From an uncultured Nitrospiraceae bacterium (GTDB lineage Bacteria; Nitrospirota; Thermodesulfovibrionia; Thermodesulfovibrionales; UBA6898): 64,000 bases of DNA. The notes below the pieces were generated by a model. The model worked only from the letters and a program-made list of their open reading frames with translations. It had not been told where the DNA came from and ran no database searches. This document shows positions 8,502 to 35,520 of this stretch, in pieces; within the stretch, counting starts at the first letter, position 1; the number at the start of each line of letters is the position of its first letter. The position numbers and the translations under genes were made by a program. Location of the stretch: NCBI GenBank assembly GCA_963811165.1, contig CAWEQH010000004.1, forward strand, positions 224,001 through 288,000, written 5' to 3'.

Positions 8502-8528
8502 AGTTTCTCCTTAGCAGTTTGGCGAGTT

Positions 8529-18090: not shown

Positions 18091-18108
18091 CCCTTTCTCC
18101 TTTCGAAG

Positions 18109-18434: not shown

Positions 18435-18452
18435 GGAATGCCCCTTATCCAC

Positions 18453-18995: not shown

Positions 18996-19110
18996 TTCTC
19001 TCCTCCTGTTTTTAGATGTGCAATCATCAGATTGCAATGTTATTAAATATAGCCAGGGCGAATTACTACCTTCACATCATTTACACAGGCCTGCGTCCCC
19101 GGCCGCAAAT

Positions 19111-19674
19111 CTACCTATACCGATCCAGATCCCTTTCCAATGAATCGAGCCTGCGGGAAGTGTCTGCGCTCTCCTCGTACGTTGGGTATCTGCCTCCTTC
19201 CGTCATCCGCAAATAATCACGCCGAATGGAGTCCAGTCTGGATTGAAATTCCCGCTCATCTGTCAGAGGCAAACGCCTGCTGATTCTTCCATCATCAATT
19301 CTCCTTTGGAGTGCGACAATCCTGTCCCCATTAGCTGGTTCTTCAATTCTTGTGGTCCGGGACATCGCCCTGTTGATCTCATCTCCAAGCGCATCAAGTC
19401 TTCCAAGAAGGCTTTCCCACTCGTTCCGGTAGACCCTTTTTTCTCTCAGCGCCTCATAGTCTGTTCGAATACCCTTCAGTCTCGTCAGGAATATCTGGGA
19501 CTGATCGGGGGTAAGCGCGCCGCTTTTCAGCCCGTCCCCAATCTTCTCCTGGATTACAACCATCTTGTTCTCCGCATTTCTTTCATAATCCGGCCATGTC
19601 TGGGTAGTAGCGCAGCCCGAAAACAGGGCCAATCCCAAAACCATTAACACTGCCATAAAAATGACCTTCTTCAT
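19111..19674 (-). CDS. Helical hypothetical lipoprotein
   Basis: LFSGC lipobox, two related helical halves (I.DG...G.L). Confidence 0.78.
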   Translation of the reverse strand: MKKVIFMAVLMVLGLALFSGCATTQTWPDYERNAENKMVVIQEKIGDGLKSGALTPDQSQIFLTRLKGIRTDYEALREKRVYRNEWESLLGRLDALGDEINRAMSRTTRIEEPANGDRIVALQRRIDDGRISRRLPLTDEREFQSRLDSIRRDYLRMTEGGRYPTYEESADTSRRLDSLERDLDRYR

Positions 19675-19737
19675 TTCTCTCCTCCCTTCTTTAGCAGGGG
19701 CGCATTGCAATACGCCCCTGCGGGTCTGTCTGCGTTT

Positions 19738-20520
19738 CTATTCCACAATTACTTCAAAGTGAACTCTCCGGTTATTCTTCATACACGTACTGTTCTTATT
19801 AGAGGGAGTAGGCTCCTCAACACAGAGCGGCCTTGTCTTACCATAGCTGATTGTCGTCATCTTCTCGGCAGCGATACCCTGATTTGCAAGGTACTCCTTC
19901 ACTGAATTAGCCCTTCGTTCGCCGAGTGCCATATTGTAGTCTTCGGACCCATGCGCACAGGTATGTCCTTCGATCTGGACCTTTATGCCCGGGTTTTCTT
20001 TCATTGTCTTTATGTCGCTGTCGAGAATACCCGTTGCGACTTTCGTAAGGGTCGCCTTATTAAAATCGAAATGTATGTCCTCAAGGGTTATCTTCACGGC
20101 CTCGACAACCGGAGCAGGCGGAGGCGGTGTAGGCTCTGGTGCCGGTGGCGGGGTTACAGGCTCAGGCTTGGGTTCGGGCTTTACCTCAGCGACCGGTTTG
20201 GCCGGGCAAAGTGCCTTAATTTTCGCAATTGCATCATTGGCCATATCGATCGCTTCCAGCGTATGGCACGACCTGTAGACATCATAGGCCTCGTCTACCT
20301 TGGCCTTAAGCGCATTAAATTCTGTCGGACATTCCTTATCTTTGCCCGCCGCGCGAGCTTCATCCAGGGCCCGGTCTGCTTTGACTAATGCCGTGGGATA
20401 ATACAAATAGCCATCTCTGTATTCCGGTCTTTTCTCCATACCGGAACACCCAACAATTAAACTCATGGAAAAAATTGCAATTACGAACATAAACACTCTC
20501 TTTACAGTTATTGCCTGCAT
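19738..20520 (-). CDS. OmpA/Pal-family peptidoglycan-binding lipoprotein
   Basis: IVGC lipobox, Pro-rich linker, IHFDFNK, EGHT, YNMALGERRA, NRRVHF. Confidence 0.93.
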   Translation of the reverse strand: MQAITVKRVFMFVIAIFSMSLIVGCSGMEKRPEYRDGYLYYPTALVKADRALDEARAAGKDKECPTEFNALKAKVDEAYDVYRSCHTLEAIDMANDAIAKIKALCPAKPVAEVKPEPKPEPVTPPPAPEPTPPPPAPVVEAVKITLEDIHFDFNKATLTKVATGILDSDIKTMKENPGIKVQIEGHTCAHGSEDYNMALGERRANSVKEYLANQGIAAEKMTTISYGKTRPLCVEEPTPSNKNSTCMKNNRRVHFEVIVE

Positions 20521-20641
20521 CCTTAGACCTCCTTCACAAAGTTTGTTGTTTTCACAGCCTCAATATGCCCCTAAATAATGCTTCTTCATTCACACCCCCT
20601 AGCACCAGCTTTTCCTCCTCTGCCCCAGCGGGAAAATAATG

Positions 20642-20782
20642 TTATCCTCTCCGAAAGAGTCCTACCACCAGCACAATGACTGCTACGACTAGCAAAATAT
20701 GGATGAATCCGCCCATCGTGTAACTGCTTACCAGCCCCAACAGCCAAAGTATCACGAGTATCACAAAGATCGTCCAAATCAT
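20642..20782 (-). CDS. lmo0937-family small membrane protein (46 aa, not in ORF track)
   Basis: MIWTIFVILVILWLLGLVSSYTMGGFIHILLVVAVIVLVVGLFRRG, with GGAGG RBS. Confidence 0.85.
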   Translation of the reverse strand: MIWTIFVILVILWLLGLVSSYTMGGFIHILLVVAVIVLVVGLFRRG

Positions 20783-20865
20783 AACAACCTCCTTTTGTTA
20801 TATGACATCATGCCTCACGCGTTTGCATCGAACCCGGTAGCATATCCTTCCCGCTCTCATAGCGA

Positions 20866-21207
20866 TCACCGTACCCTGCTGTCCAGGACGTCTTCTATGG
20901 CCTCCATCCCTGCCGTGTGTGACACAGTGTTGAACTGCAGTTCGGGTCGCTCGCTCAGGAGATCCATGAGCGCGAGCAACTGCCGCTGATTGTCCGTACG
21001 GAGGTGGCCCTCAAGATCTTTCTGTGTCTTCCATTCCTCCACCAGGACAAAGGTGTTTGCGTCTTCTACGTCTTCATAGAGACGATAACTCATGCAGCCC
21101 CTTTCGACCCGCACGGGTTCGATTATCCCCCGCATCGTTTCCAAAAGATCATTCCGCCTTTCAGGCCGGACAATCATTCTTAATGTTACAAGTATCTTCG
21201 TGTCCAT
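20866..21207 (-). CDS. ABM-domain protein (putative quinol monooxygenase)
   Basis: RVERGCMSYRLYED...FVLVEEW...HL pattern. Confidence 0.85.
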   Translation of the reverse strand: MDTKILVTLRMIVRPERRNDLLETMRGIIEPVRVERGCMSYRLYEDVEDANTFVLVEEWKTQKDLEGHLRTDNQRQLLALMDLLSERPELQFNTVSHTAGMEAIEDVLDSRVR

Positions 21208-21251
21208 CTGGCCTACTTTATACAGAGACCAGATCCAGATCTATTACCGGC

Positions 21252-21434
21252 TTAATGACGTTCTTCGTGCTCATTGTGTCCTCCGCGCTCTTGCTCGCCA
21301 TGCCCTCCGCGTTCCTGCTCACCTTGCCTCCCACGGTCATGCTCATCGTACCCGCCGCGACGGTCCCAAAAACAGCCTGACAGGGTCGACATACACATAA
21401 GAAGCACAAGAGATGCTGCGATCTTCCTTATCAT
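21252..21434 (-). CDS. Small lipoprotein with G/H/E/R-rich disordered tail
   Basis: LSGC lipobox and GEQERGGH repeats. First gene after sigma54 promoter 1. Confidence 0.75.
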   Translation of the reverse strand: MIRKIAASLVLLMCMSTLSGCFWDRRGGYDEHDRGRQGEQERGGHGEQERGGHNEHEERH

Positions 21435-21486: not shown

Positions 21487-21503
21487 AGCAGAATGTGTGC
21501 CGA
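21487..21503 (-). promoter_or_regulatory. sigma54 -24/-12 promoter, copy 1
   Basis: Minus strand TCGGCACACATTCTGCT (GG-N10-GC). Confidence 0.75.
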
Positions 21504-21601
21504 GCCGTTGTTGACAGGGCAGGAGTCTCTATGATGTTGAAAATATTGAACTTTCAGCGAAAGCTACGACATGGGAATGATACTGCGAGGAGTCCCGACT
21601 T

Positions 21602-21632
21602 CTGATATATCAGGAGACTCCTGATATATCAG
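21602..21632. promoter_or_regulatory. 31-bp double palindrome (putative enhancer/UAS), copy 1
   Basis: CTGATATATCAG GAGACTC CTGATATATCAG, starting 101 bp from the -24 GG. Confidence 0.8.
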
Positions 21633-21735
21633 GTATTCTTCTTGCTATTTCGATGCCCAGTCTTTGCATCCTCGATTCAAGCGTTATGGGATTGATGTCT
21701 AAAAACATCTGCAGCACCGTTCTTTCCGCCTATTC
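21629..21735 (-). pseudogene. Remnant of sigma54-activator C-terminal HTH
   Basis: Aligns to ~28468-28575. Reads IGGKNGAADV/(frameshift)LDINPITLESRMQRLGI versus VSGKGGAAEVLGINPKTLGSRMQKLGI in the intact gene. Confidence 0.85.
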
Positions 21736-23007
21736 CTACTTTTCCGTTAGTTGCATATAAACTAAAATCACGGCAGCAAAGGTCATAAGAACTAATGTCG
21801 CAAATCCAAGAATATTAGAAGTTTTTCCGTTTGTATTTTTGCCCATTATTTTTTTGTTGTTGGAAATGTGAAGAATGATTGCAATTAAGACAGGTGCAGT
21901 CAATCCATAAAGAATGGCTGAATAAATCAGCGCCTTAATTGGTGAAATACCAATGTAATTCAACGATAGCCCCAAGATTAGTGAAATGACGATGATGATA
22001 TAAAATGCTTTTGCGTTGTGAAATTTTTTATCCAGTCCTTCTTTCCAGCCAAATGTTTCGGTGATAATATAAGAAAGTGAACCACTCAGAACGGGAATGG
22101 CCAAAAGTCCGGTTCCGATGACACCGACGGCAAAAAGTATATATGCTGAATTTCCCGCTAATGGTTTCAATGCCTTGGCCGCTTGTTCAACGGTGTCAAT
22201 CTGATGAATACCCCCTTTAAATAATACCGACCCTGTCGTAAGAATGATAAAGAACATGACAAGATTTGAAAATAACATTCCGAAATCGACATCTTCTTGC
22301 ATGTCTTGCATTATTCTTTTGTTTACTATTAAATGTCTTTTCTTCTTTTTCATATCTTCTACTTCCATCGTTGCCTGCCAAAAGAAAAGATAGGGTGAGA
22401 TGGTAGTCCCAAGGATGGCAACAAGAATGCTGATAAAGTCCTTGTCAAACTTTATTGTCGGGATAAACGCGGCTTTCAAAACTGCTACCCAATCTTGTTT
22501 ATATAAAAAAGGAACAATCAGATAGACTAAAAGAACGATGCAGAGATATTTCAGAACAGCAGCAATTTTTTGATAAGGCAGATAAATAATTAACACTAAA
22601 AGGATGATGGTGAAAACAATGCTGAAATACGTTGCCTGAATGGAAGGGAACAATAGATTGCCTACTGCTCCCATTCCTGCAATGTCGGCGCCGATGTTCA
22701 TTACAATGGCAGGAAAACTAAACAACAGCATTAAATACAAAACAGGTTTTGAATAATAAGTTTTAAGCGTTCCTGCCAAACCGTGAGAAGTAACCAGGCC
22801 AATTCTCGCACACATTTCCTGAATGGAAGCCATGAGTGGAAATGTAATAAGTGCAGTCCAGAGAGTTGAAAGTCCGTATGCAGCACCTGCCTGTGAGTAG
22901 GTTGCAATGCCCGAAGGGTCATCATCGCTTGCGCCTGTAACAAGCCCGGGTCCAAGTATTTTCCAAAAACGAAATAGTCTATTGGAAGTATTTTTCTTAT
23001 TGTTCAT
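21736..23007 (-). CDS. NRAMP-family divalent metal transporter
   Basis: GPGLVTGASDDDPSGIATYSQAG and GTTISPYLFFWQ motifs, about 11 TM helices, visibly AT-rich. Confidence 0.92.
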   Translation of the reverse strand: MNNKKNTSNRLFRFWKILGPGLVTGASDDDPSGIATYSQAGAAYGLSTLWTALITFPLMASIQEMCARIGLVTSHGLAGTLKTYYSKPVLYLMLLFSFPAIVMNIGADIAGMGAVGNLLFPSIQATYFSIVFTIILLVLIIYLPYQKIAAVLKYLCIVLLVYLIVPFLYKQDWVAVLKAAFIPTIKFDKDFISILVAILGTTISPYLFFWQATMEVEDMKKKKRHLIVNKRIMQDMQEDVDFGMLFSNLVMFFIILTTGSVLFKGGIHQIDTVEQAAKALKPLAGNSAYILFAVGVIGTGLLAIPVLSGSLSYIITETFGWKEGLDKKFHNAKAFYIIIVISLILGLSLNYIGISPIKALIYSAILYGLTAPVLIAIILHISNNKKIMGKNTNGKTSNILGFATLVLMTFAAVILVYMQLTEK

Positions 23008-24278
23008 TATTCCCTCGAAGAGTCAGACATGTCCGCAGCCTCGGACGGACTGCTCTCCTCCTTCCGCCGATCGTCCGACATCTCGACGGCGATCGCAGCG
23101 GCCTGTTCCACAGGCACGCCCTCTGTACGGCGCTCGTACTCATTCTCAGCGCGCTCGTCACCGACGCGCTGCTCCACATCTGCAACCTGCTCCTGCTGAC
23201 CAGGAAGTTCGACGCGAAGCTCCTCTATGAGCATCATGATCGCTGCTGCGACAGGAAGCGCCAGAAGTGCGCCGAGGATCCCCATCAGCGTCCCTCCCGC
23301 AAGGAGCGCGATGAGAACGACGGACGACGGAAGGCGAAGAGACCGTCCATAAATGCGGGGAACGAGAACGCGGCTCTCGAACTCCTCGTACGCGAGCATG
23401 GTCAGCAGGACGACGGCCACGACGACCGGGCCACGCGGCAGCGCCGCAAGGACCATGGGTCCTATCGAGAGGAAGGCACCGATGTACGGCAGGACATCTG
23501 CAATGCCAGCAAACACCGCAAGCGCCATCGCGTATGGCACACCGCACGCCACCAGGAGGACGAACGAAAAGGCCGCAATGAGAAAGCACGTGATCAGCTG
23601 ACCGCGCATGTAAGCGCCGACGATCGTCTCCAGATTCATCATGACGCGGGCGAGGCGGATATGGTGCGAGCGGGGGACGACCGAGAAAAGCGCGCCACGA
23701 AGCCGGTCGCGGTCGATCATGATGTAGAGGGCGAGAAAGATGGCGCTCGCCCCGTATGCGGTGATCTCGAAGATGCGCATCGAGAAGTTGAAGGCCGTTG
23801 AGCTGATTGCTCTCAAAAGAGCGTCGTACTTGACGTTCCGCAGCCATTCCGCGAGCGGCGCTGTCAGGTTGGAGAGGGCGAGATAATCCGCAAGGCGTGC
23901 GCGAAACTCGGGTTCCTGCTCGACCAGCGCAGAGGCCTGCGTCACCAGCGACGGGATTGTCAGCGTCAAGGCCAGAGTCGCGGCGACGAAGAGGAGTGTG
24001 AAGACGACGGCGATCGCAAGGCTGCGTCTGACACGCCGCGCCTCCATCCAGCTGACGGCCGGACTCATCGTCCCGACGATGAGAAGAGCGATGACGAGCA
24101 CCAGAAAGACCGGCCAAAGCCGGACCAGCAGCCACAGACAGGCCACGACGAGGATGAGCTGGATCATCGTCGCAAACGATATCTCGAAACGCACCACACG
24201 CGTTTTCTTGCCCGCCGAAGGCTGGCGCTCAGAGAGCGGCGGAACACCGGCCGCACCGGGCTTGATTTCTTTTTTCAC
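23007..24278 (-). CDS. AI-2E family transporter
   Basis: YMRGQL, LPYIG, ESRVLVPRIYG...L.LP, GILGALLALPVAA motifs. Visibly GC-rich. Confidence 0.9.
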   Translation of the reverse strand: MKKEIKPGAAGVPPLSERQPSAGKKTRVVRFEISFATMIQLILVVACLWLLVRLWPVFLVLVIALLIVGTMSPAVSWMEARRVRRSLAIAVVFTLLFVAATLALTLTIPSLVTQASALVEQEPEFRARLADYLALSNLTAPLAEWLRNVKYDALLRAISSTAFNFSMRIFEITAYGASAIFLALYIMIDRDRLRGALFSVVPRSHHIRLARVMMNLETIVGAYMRGQLITCFLIAAFSFVLLVACGVPYAMALAVFAGIADVLPYIGAFLSIGPMVLAALPRGPVVVAVVLLTMLAYEEFESRVLVPRIYGRSLRLPSSVVLIALLAGGTLMGILGALLALPVAAAIMMLIEELRVELPGQQEQVADVEQRVGDERAENEYERRTEGVPVEQAAAIAVEMSDDRRKEESSPSEAADMSDSSRE

Positions 24279-24318
24279 GTTCTCTTCCTCCGCGTCACGG
24301 TTGCCCAGCGAGCCCGGA

Positions 24319-24369
24319 TCACTCGTCCCTCAGGGCCTAGATCGGATTCAGCGCTGCTGGCTTCCGGGC
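24319..24369 (-). pseudogene. C-terminal scrap of a MacB/FtsX-type ABC permease
   Basis: Translates ARKPAALNPI*ALRDE*, resembling the ARKAA.L.PIEALR.E C-terminus, with an in-frame stop. Confidence 0.55.
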
Positions 24370-24370
24370 C

Positions 24371-24775
24371 TCAGGCTCCAGTAACCCAGCGATGTGCTGC
24401 AACCTCTGCGGCATCAGCGTCGGCTTTTGTCTTATGGACCGTTCCGTCAGGATGATTCGGAGGAGTGTAAATCGTGTATAGTTTGAGAGGTTTGTCTGAA
24501 GATGCATTGATTACATTATGGTATGTGCCGGCAGGCACCACAACCGCATCACCATCACCTATAACATGTTCCTCCTTGCCGTCAAAGACAAACTTAGCCT
24601 TGCCTTCTTCTACCCGGAAGAACTGATCAACGTTCTGGTGTACTTCGTTTCCGATTTCTTCCTTGGGCTGCAAACACATCACCACAAGCTGGCTATGCTT
24701 GCCCGTAAATAACACCTGCCGAAAATAACCGTTCTGGAGGGTTGTTTGCTCAATTGGTCCAACATAGGGTTTCAT
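24371..24775 (-). CDS. Cupin-domain protein
   Basis: FRQVLFTG..SQLVVM, EIGNEVH..VDQFF, VPAGTYHNV, YTPPNH. Confidence 0.92.
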   Translation of the reverse strand: MKPYVGPIEQTTLQNGYFRQVLFTGKHSQLVVMCLQPKEEIGNEVHQNVDQFFRVEEGKAKFVFDGKEEHVIGDGDAVVVPAGTYHNVINASSDKPLKLYTIYTPPNHPDGTVHKTKADADAAEVAAHRWVTGA

Positions 24776-24858
24776 TGTCCATGCCTCCTTTTTTTAAAAA
24801 AAGAATGGTTTCCATTCTCATGGCTTTTCTTTTCGAAGATTTATTCCATACTATTTAC

Positions 24859-24875
24859 AGCATGAGTTGTGCCAA
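24859..24875 (-). promoter_or_regulatory. sigma54 -24/-12 promoter, copy 2
   Basis: Minus strand TTGGCACAACTCATGCT. Confidence 0.82.
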
Positions 24876-24973
24876 TACCGGTAATGAAATAAAGGGTTCT
24901 CTAAGACCGTGAAAACATTGAACCTTCAGAGAAGACTACGATGGGGAAACGATACGGTGAAAGGTGCTGCCTT

Positions 24974-25004
24974 CTGATATATCAGGAGACTCCTGATATA
25001 TCAG
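24974..25004. promoter_or_regulatory. 31-bp double palindrome (putative enhancer/UAS), copy 2
   Basis: Identical to copy 1, 101 bp from the -24 GG. Confidence 0.8.
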
Positions 25005-25057
25005 GCATTCTTACTTATTCGGATGCCCAGTCTTTGCATCCTCTATTCAAGCGTTAT
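25001..25057 (-). pseudogene. Shorter remnant of sigma54-activator 3' end
   Basis: Reads ITLE*RMQRLGIRISKNA*, homologous to the activator tail KTLGSRMQKLGIQREKKNT*. Confidence 0.8.
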
Positions 25058-25163
25058 CGCGGCGCCCTTTTGTTTTCTCGTATACCACGGTCAATCAGCC
25101 GTAACCGGGGGAGAGTCAAAATAGACTCTTGATAAAATGAGTAATTTATTGTCCCCTGTAATA

Positions 25164-25319
25164 TTACCTGCCAATTAGGATAAAGGCGCCGGCAGCAATA
25201 GCGAGAATATCCAGCAAAGTACGTATCGTGAGAATTCCGCCTCCCAGCAGACCCGTCAGGCCGATCAAGATGAGCCAGATTCCCAGCAAAAGCATTCCAA
25301 TATTCTTTGTCACTGTCAT
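25164..25319 (-). CDS. Small two-TM membrane protein (51 aa, not in ORF track)
   Basis: MTVTKNIGMLLLGIWLILIGLTGLLGGGILTIRTLLDILAIAAGAFILIGR, with GGAGGTG RBS. Confidence 0.8.
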   Translation of the reverse strand: MTVTKNIGMLLLGIWLILIGLTGLLGGGILTIRTLLDILAIAAGAFILIGR

Positions 25320-25485
25320 GTTATTCACCTCCTAAAATAAATATATTTCGACCATGTCATCTTATGTGACTGGCTTACCTAACCTTTAATTAATTTATAC
25401 ACCAAAGAGCACGATTCGCCAACAGTTCGAGAAAAATTGTGACAAATGGTTTTTTCTTGCTACACTGAAAATATATTTGCTAACC

Positions 25486-25535
25486 CTCTTTTACAGGGAT
25501 AGGCAAAGCGCCTTTGCCTGTCCCTGGTAGAAGAG
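25486..25535. repeat. REP-like imperfect inverted repeat
   Basis: CTCTTTTAC-AGGGATAGGCAAAG-CGC-CTTTGCCTGTCCCT-GGTAGAAGAG. Confidence 0.6.
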
Positions 25536-25660
25536 TTTCCCGAGTGAAAGAGGCGCGTAACTGCATGATAAGAGTCGGGCCCGACATGGCGCTGAGCATG
25601 GCACCGCCAGAAATTCCCGCATGGCTTGCTCCAGGCGGCGAGCGAGCCCATCTATCCTGA

Positions 25661-27418
25661 TCAGTGACGGTCAGCACCGCGCCACTCAACAGCTCCGAAC
25701 CCAGGCTTGCCAAGCAAAGTGTAAACGAGGCTGACGGTCCCCGTCGTCTGGTGACTGGCAGCCCGGTCGGGATATCGCGCATCTCGTGAGGACGCGATGT
25801 ATTGGATCCCGAGGGCGTGACGTCCGTAAATGCGAACGGCAAACCCCGTGTTCAAGCGCTCGATGGTCTCCCTTCCCCCCGGGTCCGCGCCACCCACGCC
25901 AGTCACATAATATGCGCGTCCCGTTAAGTCGAACATGGCCCTGTCGCCAAGGATGAGGCGGAGCCCAAGGAGCCCCTGCGGGGCGACGCCGTAGTGGTAG
26001 TCGCGTTCACCCACTTGGGTGACATTACCTGCCGCACCGTACCCGACACCCCCGAGGACCGAGCCCTGGAGCGCTACCGCTCGCGCGAGCCACCATTGAA
26101 AGGTCGTACCGAGAGAGACGGAGGTGCTTGACACGCGGAAGATGTGCGGCGATATATAGTCATAGCCGCCATAGAGGCCCCATATCCCGCGATAGGAATT
26201 GCCGGCCTCGTAGTCCTTTCCGAGGAGGAGGCCCCGGATCATGACGTCATCAAAAGGGTTACGTGCGTTGCCGAGGCTGATGAACTCAAAATGGAAGTAG
26301 TCGAAAGGACGCGTGTAGTTATAGCCGGGCTTCCCGGGAAGCCCGTAGGCCATGGAGAAGTCCGCTGTCGCCTCGGTCTTTTCACCGGTGCCGGAGCCGC
26401 CCAGGTTATTCAGATGCGAATTCAGGCTTGCGCCGAGCTGCAGGCGCCAGAAGGTGGCCGGATTGTGGCTGGGAAAGACGGGCTTGAACCGGTCTCCAAA
26501 GACAAGGCGATTGAAACCCGTTGGTGGTGAGAGCACCGCCGCGCCCAGCTCGCGCCAGAGCCCGGGTTTGTCGCCATCGCCCTCGAGCACCAGGCTGGCC
26601 ATCCGGAAGAGCACCTCCCCGAAGAAGCTCCCGCCAATGCCGCTGGCGATCTGGTCATTGATGGATGGGTGCGTGGTCTCTCCTCCCGTTTCCCATAGAA
26701 AGCTGCCTGCGTTGCTGTAGAGGAGCGACTCCCAGTAGTTAAGACCCGCCGATCGCGCGAATCCATGATAAATGGATCCCTGATATGGATGCGCGAACTG
26801 GTTCATGGCGAAGGAGTCCTGATCAACTCCCCAAGAGCCGTGAAGGATGTGGTCCCGGAAGGTTGACAGGTTCGTGTCGTAGACTTTTTTCCCTCCCTCT
26901 ACAGAGTTAGAGTAGGCGAGCCGGTCGTACCCGTTGAGGAGAAGGATGAAGCCCGGGATTTCGAGGGCTGGGATGAGGTAGCTCCTGCGTGTCCCCCTCT
27001 CCCAAGACAGGGCCGATGTCGGCGCCTCAGGCTTTTCCTTCACCCACGCTTCCCCGCCCATAGAGATATTTACGGTCCGGTTCGGGTTCATATCGGAAAG
27101 CTCGATCGCATCCGGTGCCGACATATCCCTATATCCAGGGTTTGACGCTTCAAGGGTATAATTCCCAGGGGCTGGAATACCCACTGAATAGTTACCCAAC
27201 GCATCAGTAGTCCCTGTTCCTGCCAACTTACCGGTGCTTACATCTTTTACCGTGAAGATTACCCCTTGAATGTCCTGATTGTTTAACCTTACCGAACCTG
27301 AGATACCGCCTCCTTGGGCAAAGGCCGGGCTACTAACAGTGATTACTATACCCACGTGAAACGCCACAAGAATCGCCTTAAATATTTTTCTCGCACGGTA
27401 TAAGATTTCCTCAAACAT
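25661..27418 (-). CDS. DUF3943-domain outer-membrane protein with N-terminal carboxypeptidase-regulatory-like domain
   Basis: Signal peptide, TTDALGNYSV..PGNYTLEASNPGY, NQFAHPYQG...ARSAG...WE...PSINDQ, beta-rich C-terminus. Confidence 0.78.
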   Translation of the reverse strand: MFEEILYRARKIFKAILVAFHVGIVITVSSPAFAQGGGISGSVRLNNQDIQGVIFTVKDVSTGKLAGTGTTDALGNYSVGIPAPGNYTLEASNPGYRDMSAPDAIELSDMNPNRTVNISMGGEAWVKEKPEAPTSALSWERGTRRSYLIPALEIPGFILLLNGYDRLAYSNSVEGGKKVYDTNLSTFRDHILHGSWGVDQDSFAMNQFAHPYQGSIYHGFARSAGLNYWESLLYSNAGSFLWETGGETTHPSINDQIASGIGGSFFGEVLFRMASLVLEGDGDKPGLWRELGAAVLSPPTGFNRLVFGDRFKPVFPSHNPATFWRLQLGASLNSHLNNLGGSGTGEKTEATADFSMAYGLPGKPGYNYTRPFDYFHFEFISLGNARNPFDDVMIRGLLLGKDYEAGNSYRGIWGLYGGYDYISPHIFRVSSTSVSLGTTFQWWLARAVALQGSVLGGVGYGAAGNVTQVGERDYHYGVAPQGLLGLRLILGDRAMFDLTGRAYYVTGVGGADPGGRETIERLNTGFAVRIYGRHALGIQYIASSRDARYPDRAASHQTTGTVSLVYTLLGKPGFGAVEWRGADRH

Positions 27419-27525
27419 ATTCCTACGCTTTCTCCTTCCGCCATTACCGTCAATCCCATATATGCGACATGGTAATTATTGCGTTATGGTATTGTTATTT
27501 CCTTACAGTCCCTAACCATAATTCA

Positions 27526-27554
27526 GGAGGGGGCGACAAGTATTCACCCCCTCC
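27526..27554 (-). terminator. Putative terminator hairpin after CHRD gene
   Basis: GGAGGGGG...CCCCCTCC inverted repeat. Confidence 0.45.
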
Positions 27555-27582
27555 GAATATCATCAAGGACCGGTAATCGGTC

Positions 27583-28044
27583 TTATTTGATCTGCCCGCG
27601 TATCTCTCCGTTGGGATACTTATCCGTGTGAACATTAAGGTAGGCATTCCCCTTCTTTATTTGCTTAAAGAGATCTTCTACGGATTTGCCCATCATTGGC
27701 CCCATCAGTTCCTTTTTGGTAATAGTGCCCTCGGCGAGTGTGCCGCTGAATTTACCGGCTTTTTTATCGTTGGTAATAACAGCCACAGGCGGACCGTTTT
27801 CGCCCTTTTTCCCCAGATGGATATGTGCAGCGGTCACATTTTCGATATCGGAAACCGTTACATAGTAACTCAGTGCTTTTTCGTCTTTGATGAGTGTAAA
27901 AGAGGCATCGCCCTTCGCCATTGTCTCTACCGCGGGAACACTTTCGCTCCCTGATAGAATTGCCTTGAAGCTCTTGTCCTTTGCAAAGCTGGATGTTGCG
28001 AGGCCAACGACTAACAAGAATATGATCAAATACAGTTTTTTCAT
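27583..28044 (-). CDS. CHRD-domain protein
   Basis: LSGSESVP, AAHIHLG..GENGP, YLNVHT..YPNGEIRGQI. Confidence 0.92.
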   Translation of the reverse strand: MKKLYLIIFLLVVGLATSSFAKDKSFKAILSGSESVPAVETMAKGDASFTLIKDEKALSYYVTVSDIENVTAAHIHLGKKGENGPPVAVITNDKKAGKFSGTLAEGTITKKELMGPMMGKSVEDLFKQIKKGNAYLNVHTDKYPNGEIRGQIK

Positions 28045-28100
28045 AATTATCCTCCGTTTTATTTTCAAGGTGTGTTTAGATGCATACGTCCGCAAGCGGT

Positions 28101-28271
28101 CTACTGAACTTCGCCTGCGGGCATGGACTCTAATCTGCTTATCAGACCCGTGAGTGTCTTTTTCTCAATTTTGACGCCTTTTTCTTCGCCCATCTTCTCT
28201 ACTTCTTTCTGATAATGCTGCAGGGCGGTCATTATCGCAACAGCCTCGGAATTATTCAATTTCAGATTCAT
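28101..28271 (-). CDS. Small helical hypothetical protein (56 aa, not in ORF track)
   Basis: MNLKLNNSEAVAIMTALQHYQKEVEKMGEEKGVKIEKKTLTGLISRLESMPAGEVQ, with AGGAG RBS. First gene after sigma54 promoter 3. Confidence 0.7.
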   Translation of the reverse strand: MNLKLNNSEAVAIMTALQHYQKEVEKMGEEKGVKIEKKTLTGLISRLESMPAGEVQ

Positions 28272-28324
28272 CGTATTACTCTCCTTTCTCTTCGAACGTT
28301 TTATTTATTACACACTAGTTTAAA

Positions 28325-28341
28325 AGCATACGTTGTGCCAA
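28325..28341 (-). promoter_or_regulatory. sigma54 -24/-12 promoter, copy 3
   Basis: Minus strand TTGGCACAACGTATGCT. Confidence 0.82.
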
Positions 28342-28440
28342 GACCTGTGTTGAGAGAAAGGGTTCTCTAGGACTTTGAAATCATTGGAACTTCAGCGACG
28401 GCTACGATAAGGGGAATGATACTTTGAAAGGTGCTGCCTT

Positions 28441-28471
28441 CTGGTATATCAGGAGACTCCTGATATATCAG
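28441..28471. promoter_or_regulatory. 31-bp double palindrome, copy 3 (1 mismatch), overlapping the activator stop codon
   Basis: CTGGTATATCAG GAGACTC CTGATATATCAG. The activator TGA is at 28468-28470. Starts 102 bp from the -24 GG. Confidence 0.8.
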
Positions 28472-30099
28472 GTATTCTTCTTTTCTCTTTGGATGCCCAG
28501 TTTTTGCATTCTCGATCCAAGCGTCTTTGGATTGATGCCTAAAACCTCTGCTGCACCGCCCTTGCCGCTTACCCGCCAGCCCGTGGTGTTCAGCGTTTCG
28601 ATAATCTGCTGTTTCTCTGCCTCCTCGAGGGTTCTCAACTGGCCTGTCTTTGATTCCTCAATCTTAGGTACATCCACATGAAGCACCGGTCCGGTGGCTA
28701 TGATCATCGCACGCTCAATAATGTTCCTCAGTTCCCTTATGTTGCCCGGCCAGGGATAGGTTTGCAGGGTTTCAACGCCCTTCTGCGGTATCGATTCGAT
28801 CCGCTTGCCCATCCTCTTGCCGAAGTCCTGAACAAAAGACCATACAAGCGGCAATATGTCCTCCCGACGCTCACGAAGAGGCGGCACGATAATCTGAAAA
28901 ACGTTCAAACGGTAGTAAAGGTCTTCCCGGAATCCGCCCTTGCTGACCAACCCGGCAAGATCGCGGTTCGTCGCTGAAATGATTCTGACGTCGACCTTCA
29001 CGGTCCGGGGGCTGCCCAGGCGCTCAAACTCACCGCTCTCCAGTACCCGAAGCAGCTTGGCCTGGAGCTCAAGCGGCAGGGCGTCTATCTCATCCAGGAA
29101 AATCGTTGAAGCATCCGCAAGCTCAAAACGGCCTATTTGCTTCGATAGCGCACCGGTATAAGCGCCTTTCTCGCGGCCGAAGAGTTCACTTTCGATGAGG
29201 GTCGGAGGCAGGGCGGCACAGTTGACTTTAATCATAAGCCGCCCCTTGCGGGCACTCAGGCCATGGATCGCATGAGCGAGCAGTTCCTTTCCTGTTCCCG
29301 TCTCCCCCTGGATCAAAACCGTCGAGTCTGTCGGCGCCACTTGTTCTATCTGCTTCAAAACGGTCCTGATCGCTTCACTGTTGCCAACAATATCCTTATG
29401 TGAGTGTATCAGATTAATTTCTTCCCGAAGGTAGAGATTCTCCTCACGCAATTTGCTTTTTAGCTCCCTGATTTCGATAAGCGTTCCCCGGAGTGACTCC
29501 TCTGCCTTCTTGCGTTCCTCAATTTCCCTCAGGAGCTGCTGGTTTGCTTCGACTAAATCTTCAGTCCGTTCCTTCACGCGCAGGTCCATCTCATCATATG
29601 CCTTCCGGAGCGCCTCCTCTGCCTGTTTGCGCAGAGTGATGTCGCGGATGTTGCACTGGATAATTTTCTCCTTATCGACGAGGTAGACATTACTGACAAA
29701 TTCGACATCGATGAGATGACCATCTTTTGTTTCAAGCGGCAAATGTTCGTACCGCACATAACCTTTCGTCTGCAATTCTGTAAATCGGAGTTTGGATGCT
29801 GCGATGTCGCTGAAAGGCCCGATTTCCCAAAGTTTCTTCCCCAGAAAATCCTTATGCGAGTAGCCCAGCATCTCTAACAGGAATGGGTTAATGTCGAGGA
29901 TCTGTCCCGTGTCTGCATCGAGAAGAACTATCCCGTCTTGAGCGGTTTCAAAGAGCCTCCGGTAACGGGTTTCCGATCTCTTCAGCGCCTCATCTGCCTT
30001 CCTGCATTTGGCTGCTTCTGCTCCCAAATCCTCAATAGACTGATGCGGTTCTGCCGATTCATTTATCCGTTGCTCTTTTGTTTTGTCTTTATAATTCAT
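28468..30099 (-). CDS. sigma54-dependent enhancer-binding protein (PAS-coiled coil-AAA+-Fis HTH)
   Basis: PAS domain, GETGTGKE, ESELFG.EKGAYTGA, FLDEI, FREDLYYRL, WPGNIREL, C-terminal HTH. Confidence 0.95.
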   Translation of the reverse strand: MNYKDKTKEQRINESAEPHQSIEDLGAEAAKCRKADEALKRSETRYRRLFETAQDGIVLLDADTGQILDINPFLLEMLGYSHKDFLGKKLWEIGPFSDIAASKLRFTELQTKGYVRYEHLPLETKDGHLIDVEFVSNVYLVDKEKIIQCNIRDITLRKQAEEALRKAYDEMDLRVKERTEDLVEANQQLLREIEERKKAEESLRGTLIEIRELKSKLREENLYLREEINLIHSHKDIVGNSEAIRTVLKQIEQVAPTDSTVLIQGETGTGKELLAHAIHGLSARKGRLMIKVNCAALPPTLIESELFGREKGAYTGALSKQIGRFELADASTIFLDEIDALPLELQAKLLRVLESGEFERLGSPRTVKVDVRIISATNRDLAGLVSKGGFREDLYYRLNVFQIIVPPLRERREDILPLVWSFVQDFGKRMGKRIESIPQKGVETLQTYPWPGNIRELRNIIERAMIIATGPVLHVDVPKIEESKTGQLRTLEEAEKQQIIETLNTTGWRVSGKGGAAEVLGINPKTLGSRMQKLGIQREKKNT

Positions 30100-30331
30100 A
30101 TATATATTTTGTCAAGAGACTTATCGCCTGTCAATTCTCAGCGGAATGGCTCAATCTAAAACGGGAAGTGCCGCGCTCTTTTCCTATCTCAAATGAAATG
30201 GTACTTCTATATTAGAGGTGATGTCAAATATATATATATATCAAAACCTTCTTGTTAATCTGACCATTTTTGAAAGGTCATGAAGGATGAACATTGTGGA
30301 ACCAATAAAGAAATGGTAAGCTTGTTTAGAG

Positions 30332-31142
30332 ATGGAGTCGACGATAAAAGATAGTACCTTCCTGTCCTTCTTTCATTTTCTCGGCAAAAGGACAATGAAC
30401 ATAATCAACAATCTCGGTGGCATTGCCATCTTCTTGACCCTTGCCTTTCTGAAGATATTCCGGCCTAAACAGCTTCGGGAGATTATTCAGCAGGTCTATT
30501 ACATCGGCGCCAGGTCATCGACTATCGTGCTGCTCGTCGGCCTCTTCACCGGGATGGTCCTTGGCCTGCAACTCTACTATACCCTGGTAAAATTCGGATC
30601 TCAGGGGGTCTTGGGCTCTGTCGTGGCCTTCACGCTCATCAGGGAACTGGGGCCTGTCCTGACCGCTATCATGATAACCGCACGGGCGGGTTCTGCAATG
30701 ACAGCCGAAATCGGCATCCTTCGTATCTCCGAGCAGATCGACGCCCTTTATACAATGCGGATCGACCCTCAGCGGTATCTTATCAGTCCTCGTATCGCAG
30801 CCTCGATCATCAGCTTTCCCACTGCTGACAGCCTTCTTCGATCTGATCGGGATACTCGGAGGATATCTCACCGGCGTGGTCCTCCTCGGGGTAGATAAAG
30901 GCGCCTACTTTTATCGCATCCATTCCTATGTGGAGCTGGTCGACATCAGGGGCGGGTTTATCAAGTCACTCGTCTTTGCCGTGCTCGTCTCGACGATCTG
31001 CTGCTATGAGGGATATTTTACCCACCTCCGTACCGACAGCTACGGCTCAAAGAGCGTCAGCCTCTCGACCACCTCGGCAGTCGTATTATCCTGTGTCATG
31101 ATCCTGATCTCGGACTACGTCGTTACCTCTTTTCTTATGTAA
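30332..31142 (+). CDS. mlaE: MlaE lipid-asymmetry ABC permease (frameshift at ~30818-30820)
   Basis: RELGPVLTAI..ARAGSAMTAEIG..EQIDAL..PR, continuing in another frame to TTSAVV...DY. One extra C in CCC. Confidence 0.85.
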
Positions 31143-31149
31143 GGCCACT

Positions 31150-32401
31150 ATGGAAACGCCATTGATAGAATTCAGAGATGTCACCAAGCGCTTTGACGAA
31201 AAGACCATTCTCGACAAGGCGAATCTCTTGATTTATGAAAACCAGATTACTACGATCATCGGAAAAAGCGGCAGCGGCAAAAGCGTGCTTCTCAAACATA
31301 TCATCGGCCTCCTCTCTCCTGATGAAGGCAGCATACTCTTCAGGGGGAAGCCCGTCCATGACATGAAGAAAAAGGAATGGGAAGGATACAGAAGCAAGAT
31401 CAGCTACATGTTCCAGAATAATGCCCTCTTTGATTCCATGTCGGTTTTTGAAAACATAGCCCTCCCGCTCAGGCAGACAACGCACCTCAGTAAAAAAGGA
31501 GATCGAACAGAAGGTGATGTCACGACTCGAACAGATGGAACTCACCGATGTTGTCAAACAGTACCCGTCAGAACTCTCAGGGGGGATGCAGAAGCGGGTG
31601 GCCCTGGCCCGGTCCCTCGTAACAGACCCGGCCATCGTGCTCTTTGACGAGCCGACGACCGGCCAGGACCCTATCAGGAAAAACATCATCCTGAGCATGA
31701 TCGCCCATTACAGGAAACAGTTCGGATTTACCGCCATTCTTATCAGCCATGATATCCCCGATGTCTTTTTCATCTCTGACCGGATACTTCTCCTTTGGGA
31801 AGGGAAAATAGCTTTTAACGGGACCTATGAGGAGTTGACGAGATTTAAGCATCCCATGATCGACGAATTTCTCAGGAGCATTGAGGGCCTCCGTGACGAG
31901 CTCACCGGGCTTCTCTCAAAGGAGATATTTAGATCCAGGTATGACATGACACTGGGCGGAGGGCATGTCGACACTACAATCACGGCAGTGCTCTTCGGCG
32001 TCAGCGTTGACCAGATTACTGTTACGCTCGGGGCTCAAGCTGCCATAGAAGTCCTCAAGACGCTCGGTGAGCATGTCAATGAACATTTCGGTCCACTGGG
32101 GGGATTCTCATCCCGCCACAGAAGAGGCGAGATCCTTACGATACTGCCGCGGGTTAGCCTTGACGAAGCCGGGCAGTTAGTGCATGATTTTGCCCAGAGA
32201 CTCCAGCAAAAGGCCCTTCCCGGGATCCAGGCACTTACCAGGGTAAAGACGGGACCCAAAGAAGGTTTCGAAATATTTGTGACTGCAGGGATGACTGAGG
32301 GCAGTTCCTCTGACGACATTGATCAGATCATAGAAAAGGCTGAAGCGAATCAGAAGATAATCGCACGATACCAGTGGGATAAGGAGGGTGCTTCGAAATG
32401 A
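31150..32401 (+). CDS. mlaF: MlaF ABC ATPase with C-terminal degenerate GGDEF-like extension (frameshift in A6 at 31492-31497)
   Basis: GKSGSGKS and FQNNALFDSM in the first frame. PSELSGGMQKR, DEPTTGQDP, SHD in the second frame. Confidence 0.85.
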
Positions 32402-32871
32402 AAAAATACTCGCTCGAAACGGTTGTCGGCATTTTTGTAGTCATCGGCCTCCTCTGCGTGGCATACATGACGGTGAAACTCGGCAAGGTCTCCCTGTTCG
32501 GGGACAACTACTATTCACTCTATGCGCGCTTCGGTTCAGTATCAGGATTACGGGAGGGCAGCCCTATCGAGATTGACGGCATCGAGGTCGGGCGGGTGGC
32601 ACGACTGACCTTGGACCAGGAAAAACAGTTGCCATTGGTTGCATTGAAAATCCGGAAAGGCGTCAGGGTTTATGACGACGCCTCCGCGGCGATCAAAACC
32701 GCCGGTCTCATCGGCGACAAGTTCGTCAAGATCGACCCGGGAGGTGGTGGTGAAGTCCTCAAGCCTGGAGGGACGATCACCGAGACTACCTCCGCCACTG
32801 ATATAGAGGAACTTATCAGTAAATATGCGTTTGGAGACATCAAAAAGGACGATAAGAAGGAGACAAAATGA
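32398..32871 (+). CDS. mlaD: MlaD (MCE domain) protein
   Basis: ETVVGIFV, F.SVSGL..GS....GIEVGRV, IKTAGLIGDKFV.IDPGG. Confidence 0.93.
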   Translation: MKKYSLETVVGIFVVIGLLCVAYMTVKLGKVSLFGDNYYSLYARFGSVSGLREGSPIEIDGIEVGRVARLTLDQEKQLPLVALKIRKGVRVYDDASAAIKTAGLIGDKFVKIDPGGGGEVLKPGGTITETTSATDIEELISKYAFGDIKKDDKKETK

Positions 32872-32888
32872 GCTTTAAGGAAGAAGTC

Positions 32889-33483
32889 ATGAAGAAATAT
32901 CTTATAGACGTGATCCTTATTGTTTGCCTGCTTTGTCCGGTCCCGGCCCTTGCAGGCGTGCCGCTTGATACGGTAAAGGGCTATGCCGACAAAGTGCTTG
33001 ACGTACTTCGGGACCCAGCCCTCAAGGCCTGAAGCTGCAAAGAAGACCAAAAAGGAAAAACTCCGGGCCATTTCAGAGAAGATGTTTGACTTTACCGAAC
33101 TCTCCAGGAGGACCCTGGCCAATAACTGGAAAAAGCTCAGTCCGGAGCAACAGAAGGAGTTTGTCGAGCTCTATACTTCTCTCCTCGAGGATGCCTATTC
33201 CAAAAAGATCATGGCGTACAGTGATGAGAAGATCACCTTCACCAAAGAGGTTCCCCTCAGTGAAAAGACGGTTGAGGTCCAGAGTACGGTTTTGAAAAAA
33301 GGTGCTGAAACCCCGATATACTACAGAGTGATGCTGCAGGATGGAGCGTGGAGGGTCTACGATGTTGTTGTCGAAGGGGTAAGCCTCATCAATAACTACC
33401 GCTCTCAATTTAGAGAAATACTCGCAAACAAACCGCCGGAGTCATTACTCGAAACCCTGAGGAAAAAGGTGGGCAAAGCCTGA
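32889..33483 (+). CDS. mlaC: MlaC phospholipid-binding protein (frameshift at ~33026)
   Basis: Signal peptide MKKYLIDV... in one frame, then FDFTELSRRTL..W, W.VYDVVVEGVSL..NYRSQF in the next. Confidence 0.85.
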
Positions 33484-33518
33484 GCCCTGCGTAAAGAAAC
33501 CGCAAAAGAAGAAAATCC

Positions 33519-34423
33519 GTGAAGCTCATACGTGCTTTCATACTGATCTCTGTTCTTGTGCTCTGTCCGGTCCCTCTCTGTGCAGCTACTTCTTCAACGG
33601 TCCCGGATGTGGAGCACTCTCATGAACCGTCGCATATCTTGCGCGAATCACTTATCGATAAATACCATAAGGTCGAAAAAGAATTGGGGGAAAGTCCTTC
33701 CGCTATTCCTTTCTTCATAGAATCGGCGGTGAGCAAAAATGCCTCCCATGTCGATATTTACGGCACTGTTAAGTATCCTTTCGATATTGTGAAGGATGAG
33801 CTTCTGGTTCCGACTAACTGGTGTGATATTTTTTTGCCTCATATTAAGGTAGGAGCATGTACGTATAAGAAGGTGAATGATACATGGCTGCTCAATATCT
33901 ATAACGTCAACAAATTCTCCGAACCTATCGAGGATGCATATCAAATGAAATTCGAGTACCGCGTCAGTGAGCTGCAGGCGAGGTATTTTGATGTTTCACT
34001 CACTGCACATGAGGGCCCCTTTCATACAAAGGACCACCAGGTCGGAAAGGCACGACATTTATTCATTTACAGTATTCTTTTCGTTACAGTTCTTTCGCAT
34101 ATTTGCTTATGAAACTATTCGGCGGCAGCAAGGTCGGTTTCAGTGTTACCGGGACAGATAGCAGCGGCAACCCTGTTTATGTGGAAGGTTTAAGGGGTTC
34201 AGTTGAGCGTGATGTTGCATGTTATTATCTTGCAGTTCTGGCATACCTGGACACGCTCAAGATTCCTGCTGAGCAACGCTTTGAGAAACGAATCAGTTAC
34301 TGGTATGATTTGGCGGCCCGTTTCAAAAAACAGCTGCTCGAAATGGAAAAGGAAGAATATCTCATCCAGAAGAGAAAGGACCGGGAAAGTCAACAAAAAC
34401 TTCAGGAAACTTTGGGCAAATAG
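33519..34423 (+). pseudogene. Secreted hypothetical protein, disrupted at ~34040 (paralogue of 37473-38403)
   Basis: Shares HVDxYG..YPF, P.NWCDI, ACTY, EGPF.TKDH, KVGF.VTGTD..GNPVY..G.RG..ER. About 8 codons missing plus a frameshift after KDHQ. Confidence 0.7.
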
Positions 34424-34480
34424 AGATATCCTGTTGAACGCGACGGCCGGCGTGGATACTCCTTCCCTTCTTTTGTGCCT

Positions 34481-34777
34481 TTATTCTTTATAGACCCTTT
34501 TCTCAACGTGGGCCTCTTCTTCAGGGGTCGAATCCGACAAGGTTTCACGTACTACTTCAACAGGATTTTTCCCCTCTTCTTTCATGCTGCTCAGGAAAAG
34601 TTCTATCTCCTTTTCAGCTTGTTCCCTCGTGTATCCGTATCTCGCCTGAAGCAGGCCCGGCAGCTGGTCCAGTTTTCCATCGACCGTATCTAGGTCTTTG
34701 TCAGTGAGAACTCCCCATCGCTGTCTTACTGCATCTTTTAATTGTTTCAACTTGTCTTGCATCATGTCTTTACTCAT
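34481..34777 (-). CDS. CsbD/YjbJ-family stress protein
   Basis: KQLK..VRQRWG.LTD.DL..VDGK.DQL.GLLQ.RYGYTREQAEKE. Confidence 0.88.
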   Translation of the reverse strand: MSKDMMQDKLKQLKDAVRQRWGVLTDKDLDTVDGKLDQLPGLLQARYGYTREQAEKEIELFLSSMKEEGKNPVEVVRETLSDSTPEEEAHVEKRVYKE

Positions 34778-34832
34778 CTCGTCTCTCCCCCTTTATAGAA
34801 ATTCATAGTGATTTCCCATGCTCTGAATCTCT

Positions 34833-34985
34833 TCAGATCCTCCCAAGCAGCAGCAGGATGAGCAGAATCAGAAGTATCAATCCGAGTCCGCCGCTGGGAT
34901 AGTACCCCCAGTTCCTGCTGTGGGGCCATGTGGGAAGCACTCCGACCAACATGAGGACCAGGATGACAATCAGTATAGTTCCCAT
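34833..34985 (-). CDS. DUF3309-family small membrane protein (50 aa, not in ORF track)
   Basis: MGTILIVILVLMLVGVLPTWPHSRNWGYYPSGGLGLILLILLILLLLGRI. Confidence 0.9.
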   Translation of the reverse strand: MGTILIVILVLMLVGVLPTWPHSRNWGYYPSGGLGLILLILLILLLLGRI

Positions 34986-35014
34986 GACTTTTCTCCTTTC
35001 CTGTCTTAACTTTA

Positions 35015-35194
35015 CTAACTCCCCAGAACCTTCTTGACCTGGCCGATCTTTTCCTGAGCTTTGCCGGCTATATTTTCTACTTTGCCTTTGGCCTGCAACT
35101 TGGGATTATCGGTGATTTTCCCGGCCATTTCCTTGACCTTACCCTTTGCTTCGTGAAACGTGCCTTTCACTTTGTCCTTCGTGCTGGATTTCAT
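35015..35194 (-). CDS. CsbD-family protein (59 aa, not in ORF track)
   Basis: MKSSTKDKVKGTFHEAKGKVKEMAGKITDNPKLQAKGKVENIAGKAQEKIGQVKKVLGS. Confidence 0.9.
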   Translation of the reverse strand: MKSSTKDKVKGTFHEAKGKVKEMAGKITDNPKLQAKGKVENIAGKAQEKIGQVKKVLGS

Positions 35195-35244
35195 GGTATT
35201 CCTCCTTTAGGATTTCAATTTGAGGGCTGGTACTTTATGGGTGG

Positions 35245-35328
35245 CTAATGGCGCCGCCCCCTCCAGTAGAATCCACCACCGCCGAAGATCAAAAACAAAA
35301 CAAGTATTATAAGGATGGTTTCCATCAT
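35245..35328 (-). CDS. 27-aa single-TM microprotein
   Basis: MMETILIILVLFLIFGGGGFYWRGRRH, with AGGAGA RBS, directly after sigma54 promoter 4. Confidence 0.7.
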   Translation of the reverse strand: MMETILIILVLFLIFGGGGFYWRGRRH

Positions 35329-35373
35329 GACTTTCTCCTTTCTCTTTGAACTGTTACTACATAACTGTATAAC

Positions 35374-35390
35374 AGCATACCTTGTGCCAA
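35374..35390 (-). promoter_or_regulatory. sigma54 -24/-12 promoter, copy 4
   Basis: Minus strand TTGGCACAAGGTATGCT. Confidence 0.82.
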
Positions 35391-35489
35391 GACCTGTGTT
35401 GAAAGAAAGGATTCTCTAAGACTTTGAATACATTGGAACTTCAGCGAATGCTACTATGGGGGGAGTGATACTTTGAAAAGTGCCGTCTT

Positions 35490-35520
35490 CTGATATATCA
35501 GGAGACTCCTGATATATCAG
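35490..35520. promoter_or_regulatory. 31-bp double palindrome (putative enhancer/UAS), copy 4
   Basis: Identical to copies 1 and 2, 102 bp from the -24 GG. Confidence 0.8.

Follow-up and report, generated by a model that had tools for sequence, protein, structure and literature searches.

In the classical sigma-54 enhancer systems, such as those of NtrC, NifA, NorR, PexR and NmpR, an activator with AAA+ and helix-turn-helix (HTH) domains, encoded next to its targets, is combined with tandem sites, an IHF-type bend and a -24/-12 promoter motif, and the upstream sites are usually palindromic and located at 80-150 bp according to the accessible text of PMC4987338. We analyzed a stretch of 64,000 nucleotides (the window) from an uncultured Nitrospiraceae bacterium (assembly GCA_963811165.1, contig CAWEQH010000004.1, positions 224,001 to 288,000), in which a 31-bp palindromic element with two 12-bp halves is found in four copies, one of them at the end of a gene for an FhlA-type PAS-AAA+-HTH activator. 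The same components are present here, namely the sigma-54 promoter motif, an rpoN gene in the genome, the AAA+/HTH activator and a co-occurring site within the 80-150 bp range, and the comparisons described below make it probable that the palindrome is the enhancer of the adjacent activator. The biochemistry itself is standard sigma-54 activation; the locus departs from the classical systems in that the element overlaps the activator stop codon, its spacing is held at 98-103 bp, the module has been multiplied together with scars of the activator gene, and its sequence differs from every published site consensus compared, as these are given in the accessible parts of the publications.

FhlA receives its input through GAF domains. 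Compared with E. coli FhlA, the window activator is 59% identical in its AAA domain and 46% identical across 46 aa of the HTH, but it carries a PAS domain and no GAF domain in Pfam (its orthologs also have receiver input), its recognition helix is NPKTLGS instead of KRTTLLS, and its putative targets are not hydrogenase genes. The FhlA site, CATTTCGTACGAAATG in the accessible text of PMC4987338, also differs from the element, and no such tandem site was found after E. coli fhlA. The best NCBIfam model for the activator was FhlA, at 400.5 bits and thus under the cut-off of 830; given this score, the PAS domain without GAF, and the different site and targets, its assignment as an FhlA equivalog was rejected. 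Other sigma-54 activators of stress or low-oxygen genes are Myxococcus PexR (PMC12754779), NmpR (PMC11841059) and Desulfovibrio DVU3305 (PMC4641369), as far as the available portions of these papers describe them. Tandem dyad sites mediate the action of PexR and NmpR, as is proposed for the window activator, but the same portions give other sites (CACCG-n6-CGGTG; GCGCA-N5-TGCGC), other sensors and other targets. CsbD does not appear in the available text on NmpR (PMC11841059), and in the part of PMC4641369 at hand the table row for DVU3305 contains only its own two operons, the D. vulgaris regulons showing nothing that matches. With the RpoS, SigB and EcfG regulons, the set of genes described here shares CsbD, BON/OsmY-like proteins, universal stress protein (USP), MscS, an entericidin-like peptide, YflT and superoxide dismutase (SOD); it differs from them by its sigma-54 motifs with an enhancer and by a patchy, island-like distribution. 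A search of open papers found no description of the element or of the regulon, and the single text match to the 12-mer was a primer. A sigma-54 regulon of general-stress-type genes is thus apparently real and undescribed.

An earlier note on this DNA, made from the sequence alone, had placed four elements at 21602, 24974, 28441 (one mismatch) and 35490, which was borne out, and the 3.66-Mb genome contains no others. When up to two mismatches were allowed, the 12-mer matched nine times in the window against 1.75 expected, with eight of the nine inside the four elements, and all seven exact occurrences in the genome also lie within them. With a matrix trained on other genomes the four elements scored 51-59 and the next genomic site about 0. 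(A lone half-site after rpoN, which falls within the coding sequence of an hpf-like gene, was attributed to chance.) The full consensus is CTGAYATATCAGGA-NNN-TCCTGATATRTCAG, a 14-3-14 palindrome. Scanning one genome per species for exact matches, with the nine central bases left free, returned at least 122 stretches; 121 distinct elements with no more than five mismatches to the full consensus were counted, in roughly 40 genomes (a rough count). These and the module figures below refer to the matches listed. Two genomes (G044 and G027) were left out of the count, their two-mismatch matches having neither the GGA/TCC spacer nor a promoter at the expected distance, and 18 of the 20 non-typical matches examined lacked both an activator and a promoter alongside. 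In the promoter-bearing matches the inner bases GGA-NNN-TCC, which the scan had left free, were nearly constant. Records with titles belong mostly to Thermodesulfovibrionales-type Nitrospirota, with a smaller Desulfurivibrionaceae/Desulfobulbaceae group; Hydrosulfovibrio ferrireducens CB1MN (loci L052, L065, L085 and L149) is a carrier that has been cultured.

Element, spacer and promoter motif make up a module of 150 bp. All four window copies have a GG-N10-GC motif in the orientation of the genes, although a strict promoter pattern misses the first (TCGGCAC). The earlier note had suggested looking for a sigma-54 motif about 100 bp from the element in other genomes, and 115 of the 121 elements have one; as one element is flanked by motifs on both sides, these make 116 modules, in 115 of which the distance is 98-103 bp. 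The fixed distance that it had described thus holds, but its 101-102 bp were coordinate differences, the true gap being 100-101 bases. Its observation that the spacers drift more than the motifs was also confirmed, as the window copies are pairwise 97-100% identical in the element, 71-94% in the 17-nt promoter and 66-86% in the spacer. An IHF-like site with at most one mismatch to the consensus was found in 56 of the 116 spacers compared with about 13% of shuffles (roughly fourfold), mostly at 40-42 bp before the GG (-40 to -42). The genome encodes rpoN (TIGR02395 at 442 bits, above cut-off), and in the profile search its IHF-alpha gene passes one cut-off and IHF-beta falls just under its own. 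The element flanked on both sides (L088, position 1195) has its motifs at 99 and 100 bp and may act bidirectionally.

At positions 5 and 27 of the element, 91 of the 116 modules have T/A, 23 have C/G and two are mixed or other. Because 23 modules carry the C5/G27 form, perfect 12-bp self-symmetry, as in the earlier description of two perfect 12-bp palindromes inside a 31-bp inverted repeat, is not required, and the GGA..TCC of the centre must be added to what is conserved. On a quick tree built from the spacers, the C/G form requires at least four changes across well-supported branches.

The earlier note had further proposed to look for co-occurrence of the element with orthologs of the activator. 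Among 151 genomes of the class, 11 contain the element (up to seven copies per genome), 10 an HTH scoring at least 100 bits, 10 both, and 140 neither, so that 10 of the 11 element genomes have an intact HTH; the carriers of both span four families. In 61 relatives, a set that overlaps the class sample, the element was found in 10, the HTH in eight and both in seven. Neither was found in 300 sampled Desulfobacterota, the sole carrier of both being the centre genome G061.

Sister clades of the activator provide a second comparison. Tandem 12-mer palindromes 6-8 bp apart and 97-104 bp before a sigma-54 motif accompany 25 of 76 other FhlA-type HTH genes, against 31 of 2000 random windows, and three of the 25 (L243, L254 and L233) look like chance. 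Genes with the helices KGTTLQS, KPTTL and RPTTL have mostly CGA-A/T-TCG cores, the helix HPSTLRA goes with the site TCAATATATTGA and NPNTLVS with TTGATATATCAA; of the genes with NPSTLRA, three have GCCATATATGAC-like sites and two others the HPSTLRA-type site. The NPNTLVS case and one more were recovered blind by a DNA-only scan, in distant records and adjoining activator stop codons. In the distant records L127 and L154, an FhlA-type activator gene is immediately followed by a tandem pair of 12-mer palindromes; L127 shows the same 12-mer, but its helix is another one (NRSTLWS) and no promoter motif was found there. Genes of the kinds seen with the window activator (lmo0937, BON, CsbD, USP, ABM, PRC) also lie behind activators of the HPSTLRA and NPSTLRA clades, and two of five genomes of these types contain a second copy of their own site. 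Across sister clades, the sequence of the site tracks the recognition helix. Within the window's genome, only one of 23 activator AAA domains, that of the adjacent activator, is followed by an NPKTL helix.

The activator consists of PAS, sigma-54 AAA+ (PF00158) and Fis-type HTH (PF02954) domains, with intact Walker A and B motifs; searches with its N-terminal 180 aa matched generic PAS structures only. Its gene is preceded by a TTGACA-N17-(T/C)AAAA(T/A)-like promoter that ends 6-9 nt before the ATG, without a ribosome-binding site. About 10 of the 20 ortholog starts listed share this layout, which suggests that the mRNA is leaderless and sigma-70-driven. Among 29 activators of the clade, 10 begin with a receiver domain, nine with the PAS type of the window, six with a CheBR-linked PAS and two with a Kai-linked type, leaving two others; these labels come from motifs of our own making, with Pfam for 10 of the 29. 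Sensor types are interspersed on the partly resolved activator tree; the output half (AAA+ and HTH) is conserved and the sensor swapped among PAS types and receiver domains. Genes for CheB-CheR-PAS fusions or hybrid kinases lie upstream of some orthologs, and kaiC-kaiB-kaiB precedes one in G062; neither KaiB nor KaiC was found in the window's genome. In L041, L077 and L085/L297, two clade activators of identical helix stand in tandem, a receiver type ahead of a PAS type, and only the second is followed by an element; those of L041 are close sisters on the tree.

Overlooked in the earlier note were the overlap of copy 3 with the activator stop codon and the scars of the activator tail upstream of copies 1 and 2, so that homology among copies 1-3 reaches upstream into its coding end. 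Three modules with less than 120 nt of flank were left out of the scar count; among the remaining 113, 11 follow an intact activator, 13 follow a tail that extends to the limit of the retrieved sequence, and 37 follow partial activator tails of 18-183 nt, the threshold for a scar being reached by none of 510 shuffles. Activator tail, enhancer and promoter are apparently duplicated as one unit when the regulon expands. The founding module would be the one at the activator's own stop codon, new operons would join by local duplication of the block of tail, enhancer, spacer and promoter, and later deletions would leave the ragged scars; because the ends are ragged, duplication followed by deletion would fit better than transposition. 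A further scar, that of the start of the 27-aa peptide encoded after copy 4, follows promoter 2 (about 13 nt shared).

The genes located behind the four copies (Table 1) belong to families that also dominate behind other copies, where USP, PRC, SOD, YflT, MscS, DUF2934 and haloperoxidase-like hydrolase genes are present too (87 of 103 representatives surveyed). Of the targets named earlier, CsbD, BON, DUF3309, lmo0937, cupin and CHRD were correct, and they recur behind the element elsewhere; the membership of USP is uncertain, its gene lying 6.4 kb from promoter 1 and behind a hairpin seen in the sequence, and it may not be on that transcript. All CsbD and BON matches of the genome sit in these operons. 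In the class sample, csbD was found in five of 151 genomes, with nine genes in total, eight of them 190-720 bp behind an element and the ninth starting 226 bp from a contig end.

Table 1. Coordinates of the features discussed, counted from the first base of the window.
Feature	Position	Strand	Remarks
Element copy 1	21602..21632		31-bp 14-3-14 palindrome; predicted tandem activator sites
Element copy 2	24974..25004		31-bp palindrome
Element copy 3	28441..28471		One mismatch; TGA at 28470-28468 is the activator stop codon
Element copy 4	35490..35520		Without activator-tail scar
Sigma-54 -24/-12 motif 1	21487..21503	-	GG at 21501; 100 bp from element
Sigma-54 -24/-12 motif 2	24859..24875	-	GG at 24873; 100 bases from element
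Sigma-54 -24/-12 motif 3	28325..28341	-	GG at 28339; 101 bases from element
Sigma-54 -24/-12 motif 4	35374..35390	-	GG at 35388; 101 bases from element
IHF-like site, spacer 4	35417..35429	-	One mismatch to the consensus
IHF-like site, copy 1	21530-21542		Two mismatches; read from alignment
IHF-like site, copy 2	24902-24914		Two mismatches
IHF-like site, copy 3	28368-28380		Two mismatches; read from alignment
PAS-AAA+-HTH sigma-54 activator	28468..30099	-	543 aa; FhlA-type HTH, helix NPKTLGS, GAYTGA loop
Sigma-70-like promoter	30106..30134	-	Ends 6 nt before activator ATG
Scar of activator 3' coding end	21633..21732	-	100 nt; upstream of copy 1, starts just after Nramp stop
Scar of activator 3' coding end	25008..25054	-	About 50 nt; upstream of copy 2
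Genes behind copy 1	15298..21434	-	Small lipoprotein, ABM, lmo0937/DUF5670, OmpA lipoprotein, 187-aa lipoprotein; further 2xBON, Thivi_2564, LTXXQ/Spy-like, 3xBON, two unnamed proteins
Universal stress protein	14653..15102	-	Co-oriented, behind hairpin; membership uncertain
Genes behind copy 2	21736..24775	-	Cupin, AI-2E transporter, Nramp-like transporter
Genes behind copy 3	25164..28271	-	56-aa protein, CHRD, DUF3943 protein, 51-aa membrane protein
Genes behind copy 4	34481..35328	-	27-aa membrane peptide, CsbD, DUF3309, second CsbD
27-aa membrane peptide	35245-35328	-	Unlisted; good ribosome-binding site; first open reading frame after promoter 4

The proposal of the earlier note that the adjacent activator acts through these palindromes agrees with all the comparative tests run, that is, spacing, stop-codon position, co-occurrence, helix tracking and the presence of rpoN and IHF-like genes. 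In this model, two activator dimers would occupy the two 12-bp halves, and DNA bending of the IHF type would bring them to the sigma-54 polymerase at a distance of about 100 bp. By hydrolyzing ATP, the activator would then turn on CsbD, BON, lmo0937, DUF3309 and similar genes, which would likely serve as a general stress set.

Several observations weigh against this interpretation. The loop of the window protein is GAYTGA, whereas 10 of 10 other intact orthologs have GAFTG[AS]; GAYTGA is counted among functional variants in the accessible part of PMC6615313. G391 has four elements and no intact HTH, as the frame of the activator gene directly before one of them stops ahead of the recognition helix; the element is found without an HTH match in G012 (70% complete), G031 and G035; and G006 has the HTH with degenerate sites only. 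No scar was detected at 52 of the 113 modules, a marker stress gene appears in the called chain of only 42 of 80 modules with long flanks, and seven of the 11 element genomes gave no CsbD match. The paired T5C/A27G change has arisen at least four times, single-sided forms being rare, which protein binding alone does not explain; it may reflect self-correction of the palindrome. Moreover, as the genomes are kin and the modules duplicates, the counts are not independent.

Whether the regulon serves general stress is a separate matter, for which we consider the chances about even. With the same enhancer mechanism, the genes could instead answer one specific cue, such as an oxygen or redox shift, entry into stationary phase, envelope remodeling or a Kai-timed state, which is possible, if on the doubtful side. 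Many of the targets are envelope or secreted proteins (OmpA, BON, LTXXQ, MscS, lipoproteins), the sensors vary among orthologs, one of which lies behind kaiC-kaiB-kaiB and others behind CheB-CheR-PAS fusions or hybrid kinases, and a distribution as patchy as 11 of 151 genomes is unlike that of a core stress sigma factor. Against a single cue, the targets include USP, YflT, SOD, PRC and the haloperoxidase-like hydrolase, and they overlap the EcfG general-stress targets of Sphingopyxis, which include csbD, ecnAB and mscS in the available text of PMC7083833. Furthermore, no RpoS (best score 289.5 against a cut-off of 378.7 bits) or SigB/F/G (138 against 234) passes in the genome, which is 95% complete, and no NepR was found in it, its sigma factors being rpoN, five RpoD-like, two unassigned ECF and one FliA. 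Since element and activator are found together across anaerobic Nitrospirota, sigma-54 and not the usual stress sigma factors likely governs the general stress genes of these bacteria. The presence of five RpoD-like paralogs in one 3.66-Mb genome (G000 C1, C8 and C10; L185-L189) was also noted.

The palindrome might also be kept mainly as a nucleic-acid structure (an RNA hairpin, an antisense terminator or a DNA cruciform), the promoter being a passenger. It folds into a 14-bp stem of -20 kcal/mol, three copies are called terminator-like on the + strand, an A-rich stretch lies just upstream in 88 of 115 modules, and one pair covaries (UA in 32 and CG in 12 of 45) in a manner that recurs on the tree. 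However, two-sided change is absent from 13 of the 14 stem pairs, an indication that sequence and not pairing is conserved; a sense-strand U tract is seen in two of 116 modules, and the A-rich stretch is the Lys/Asn tail of the activator. No Rfam match was obtained, the only invariant stem besides the palindrome is one of three pairs inside the promoter motif, most sister-clade sites are not perfect whole palindromes, and a hairpin has no need of a 98-103-bp distance to a promoter. We regard this explanation as improbable.

It is very unlikely that the module is a miniature mobile element or recombination site that carries the promoter passively. Strong palindromes can promote rearrangement, there are up to seven copies per genome, and these adjoin unrelated genes; but the module has no fixed ends, its 5' homology stopping anywhere 0-183 nt upstream, the homology is on one side only and at a fixed distance, no transposase or integrase is among the annotated window proteins, and the sampled genomes without the activator gene are also without the element, bar three. 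Binding by a different regulator, either a repressor or one of the other activators among the genome's 23, would account for the elements that persist in G391 with its truncated HTH and in G031 and G035 with no HTH match, but is equally hard to credit since the adjacent activator alone has this helix, site and HTH co-occur across four families, and site and helix vary together among the sister clades.

Other features of the window were noted in passing. To the left of the operon behind copy 1, a co-oriented run (1608-15102, - strand) with genes for USP, RNase II-like protein, FtsH, radical SAM protein, a second USP, glycogen phosphorylase, acetate kinase and phosphoketolase contains no further element. 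The TGA of copy 4 closes an open frame at 35520-35867 (-), whose C-terminal residues are similar to an IPTL-CTERM sorting tail, with no match in NCBIfam. The mlaE, mlaF and cardiolipin synthase-like genes at 30332-33483 and 38566-39958 appear split across frames, through assembly error or decay, and an mla/asmA/cls block is found divergently before the activator in several relatives. At 42187-57326, a gene for a 2648-aa polyketide synthase-like protein (NMO-KS-AT-ACP-KR-DH) is accompanied by PPTase, ABC transporter, sulfatase and B12 radical SAM genes, and fragments of a similar gene are found close to the L292 activator. As for signs of an island border, no tRNA was found and the GC content is only mildly lower.

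Taken more broadly, and with a little less than even confidence, anaerobic Nitrospirota and Desulfobacterota may possess a fourth general stress response beside those of RpoS, SigB and EcfG. It would be based on sigma-54 together with an activator of the FhlA type, the end of whose gene would serve as a portable enhancer-promoter cassette, with genes recruited by copying that end, input rewired by sensor swap (PAS, receiver, KaiBC-linked or CheBR-linked) and a helix-to-palindrome code separating sister regulons. The series of helices and palindromes, with one fixed 100-bp geometry, could give orthogonal sigma-54 parts, and the coding-tail scars document the growth of a regulon with unusual directness. 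For the control of CsbD/BON-type stress genes in bacteria without RpoS, SigB or EcfG, the locus provides a defined activator, site and promoter as candidates.

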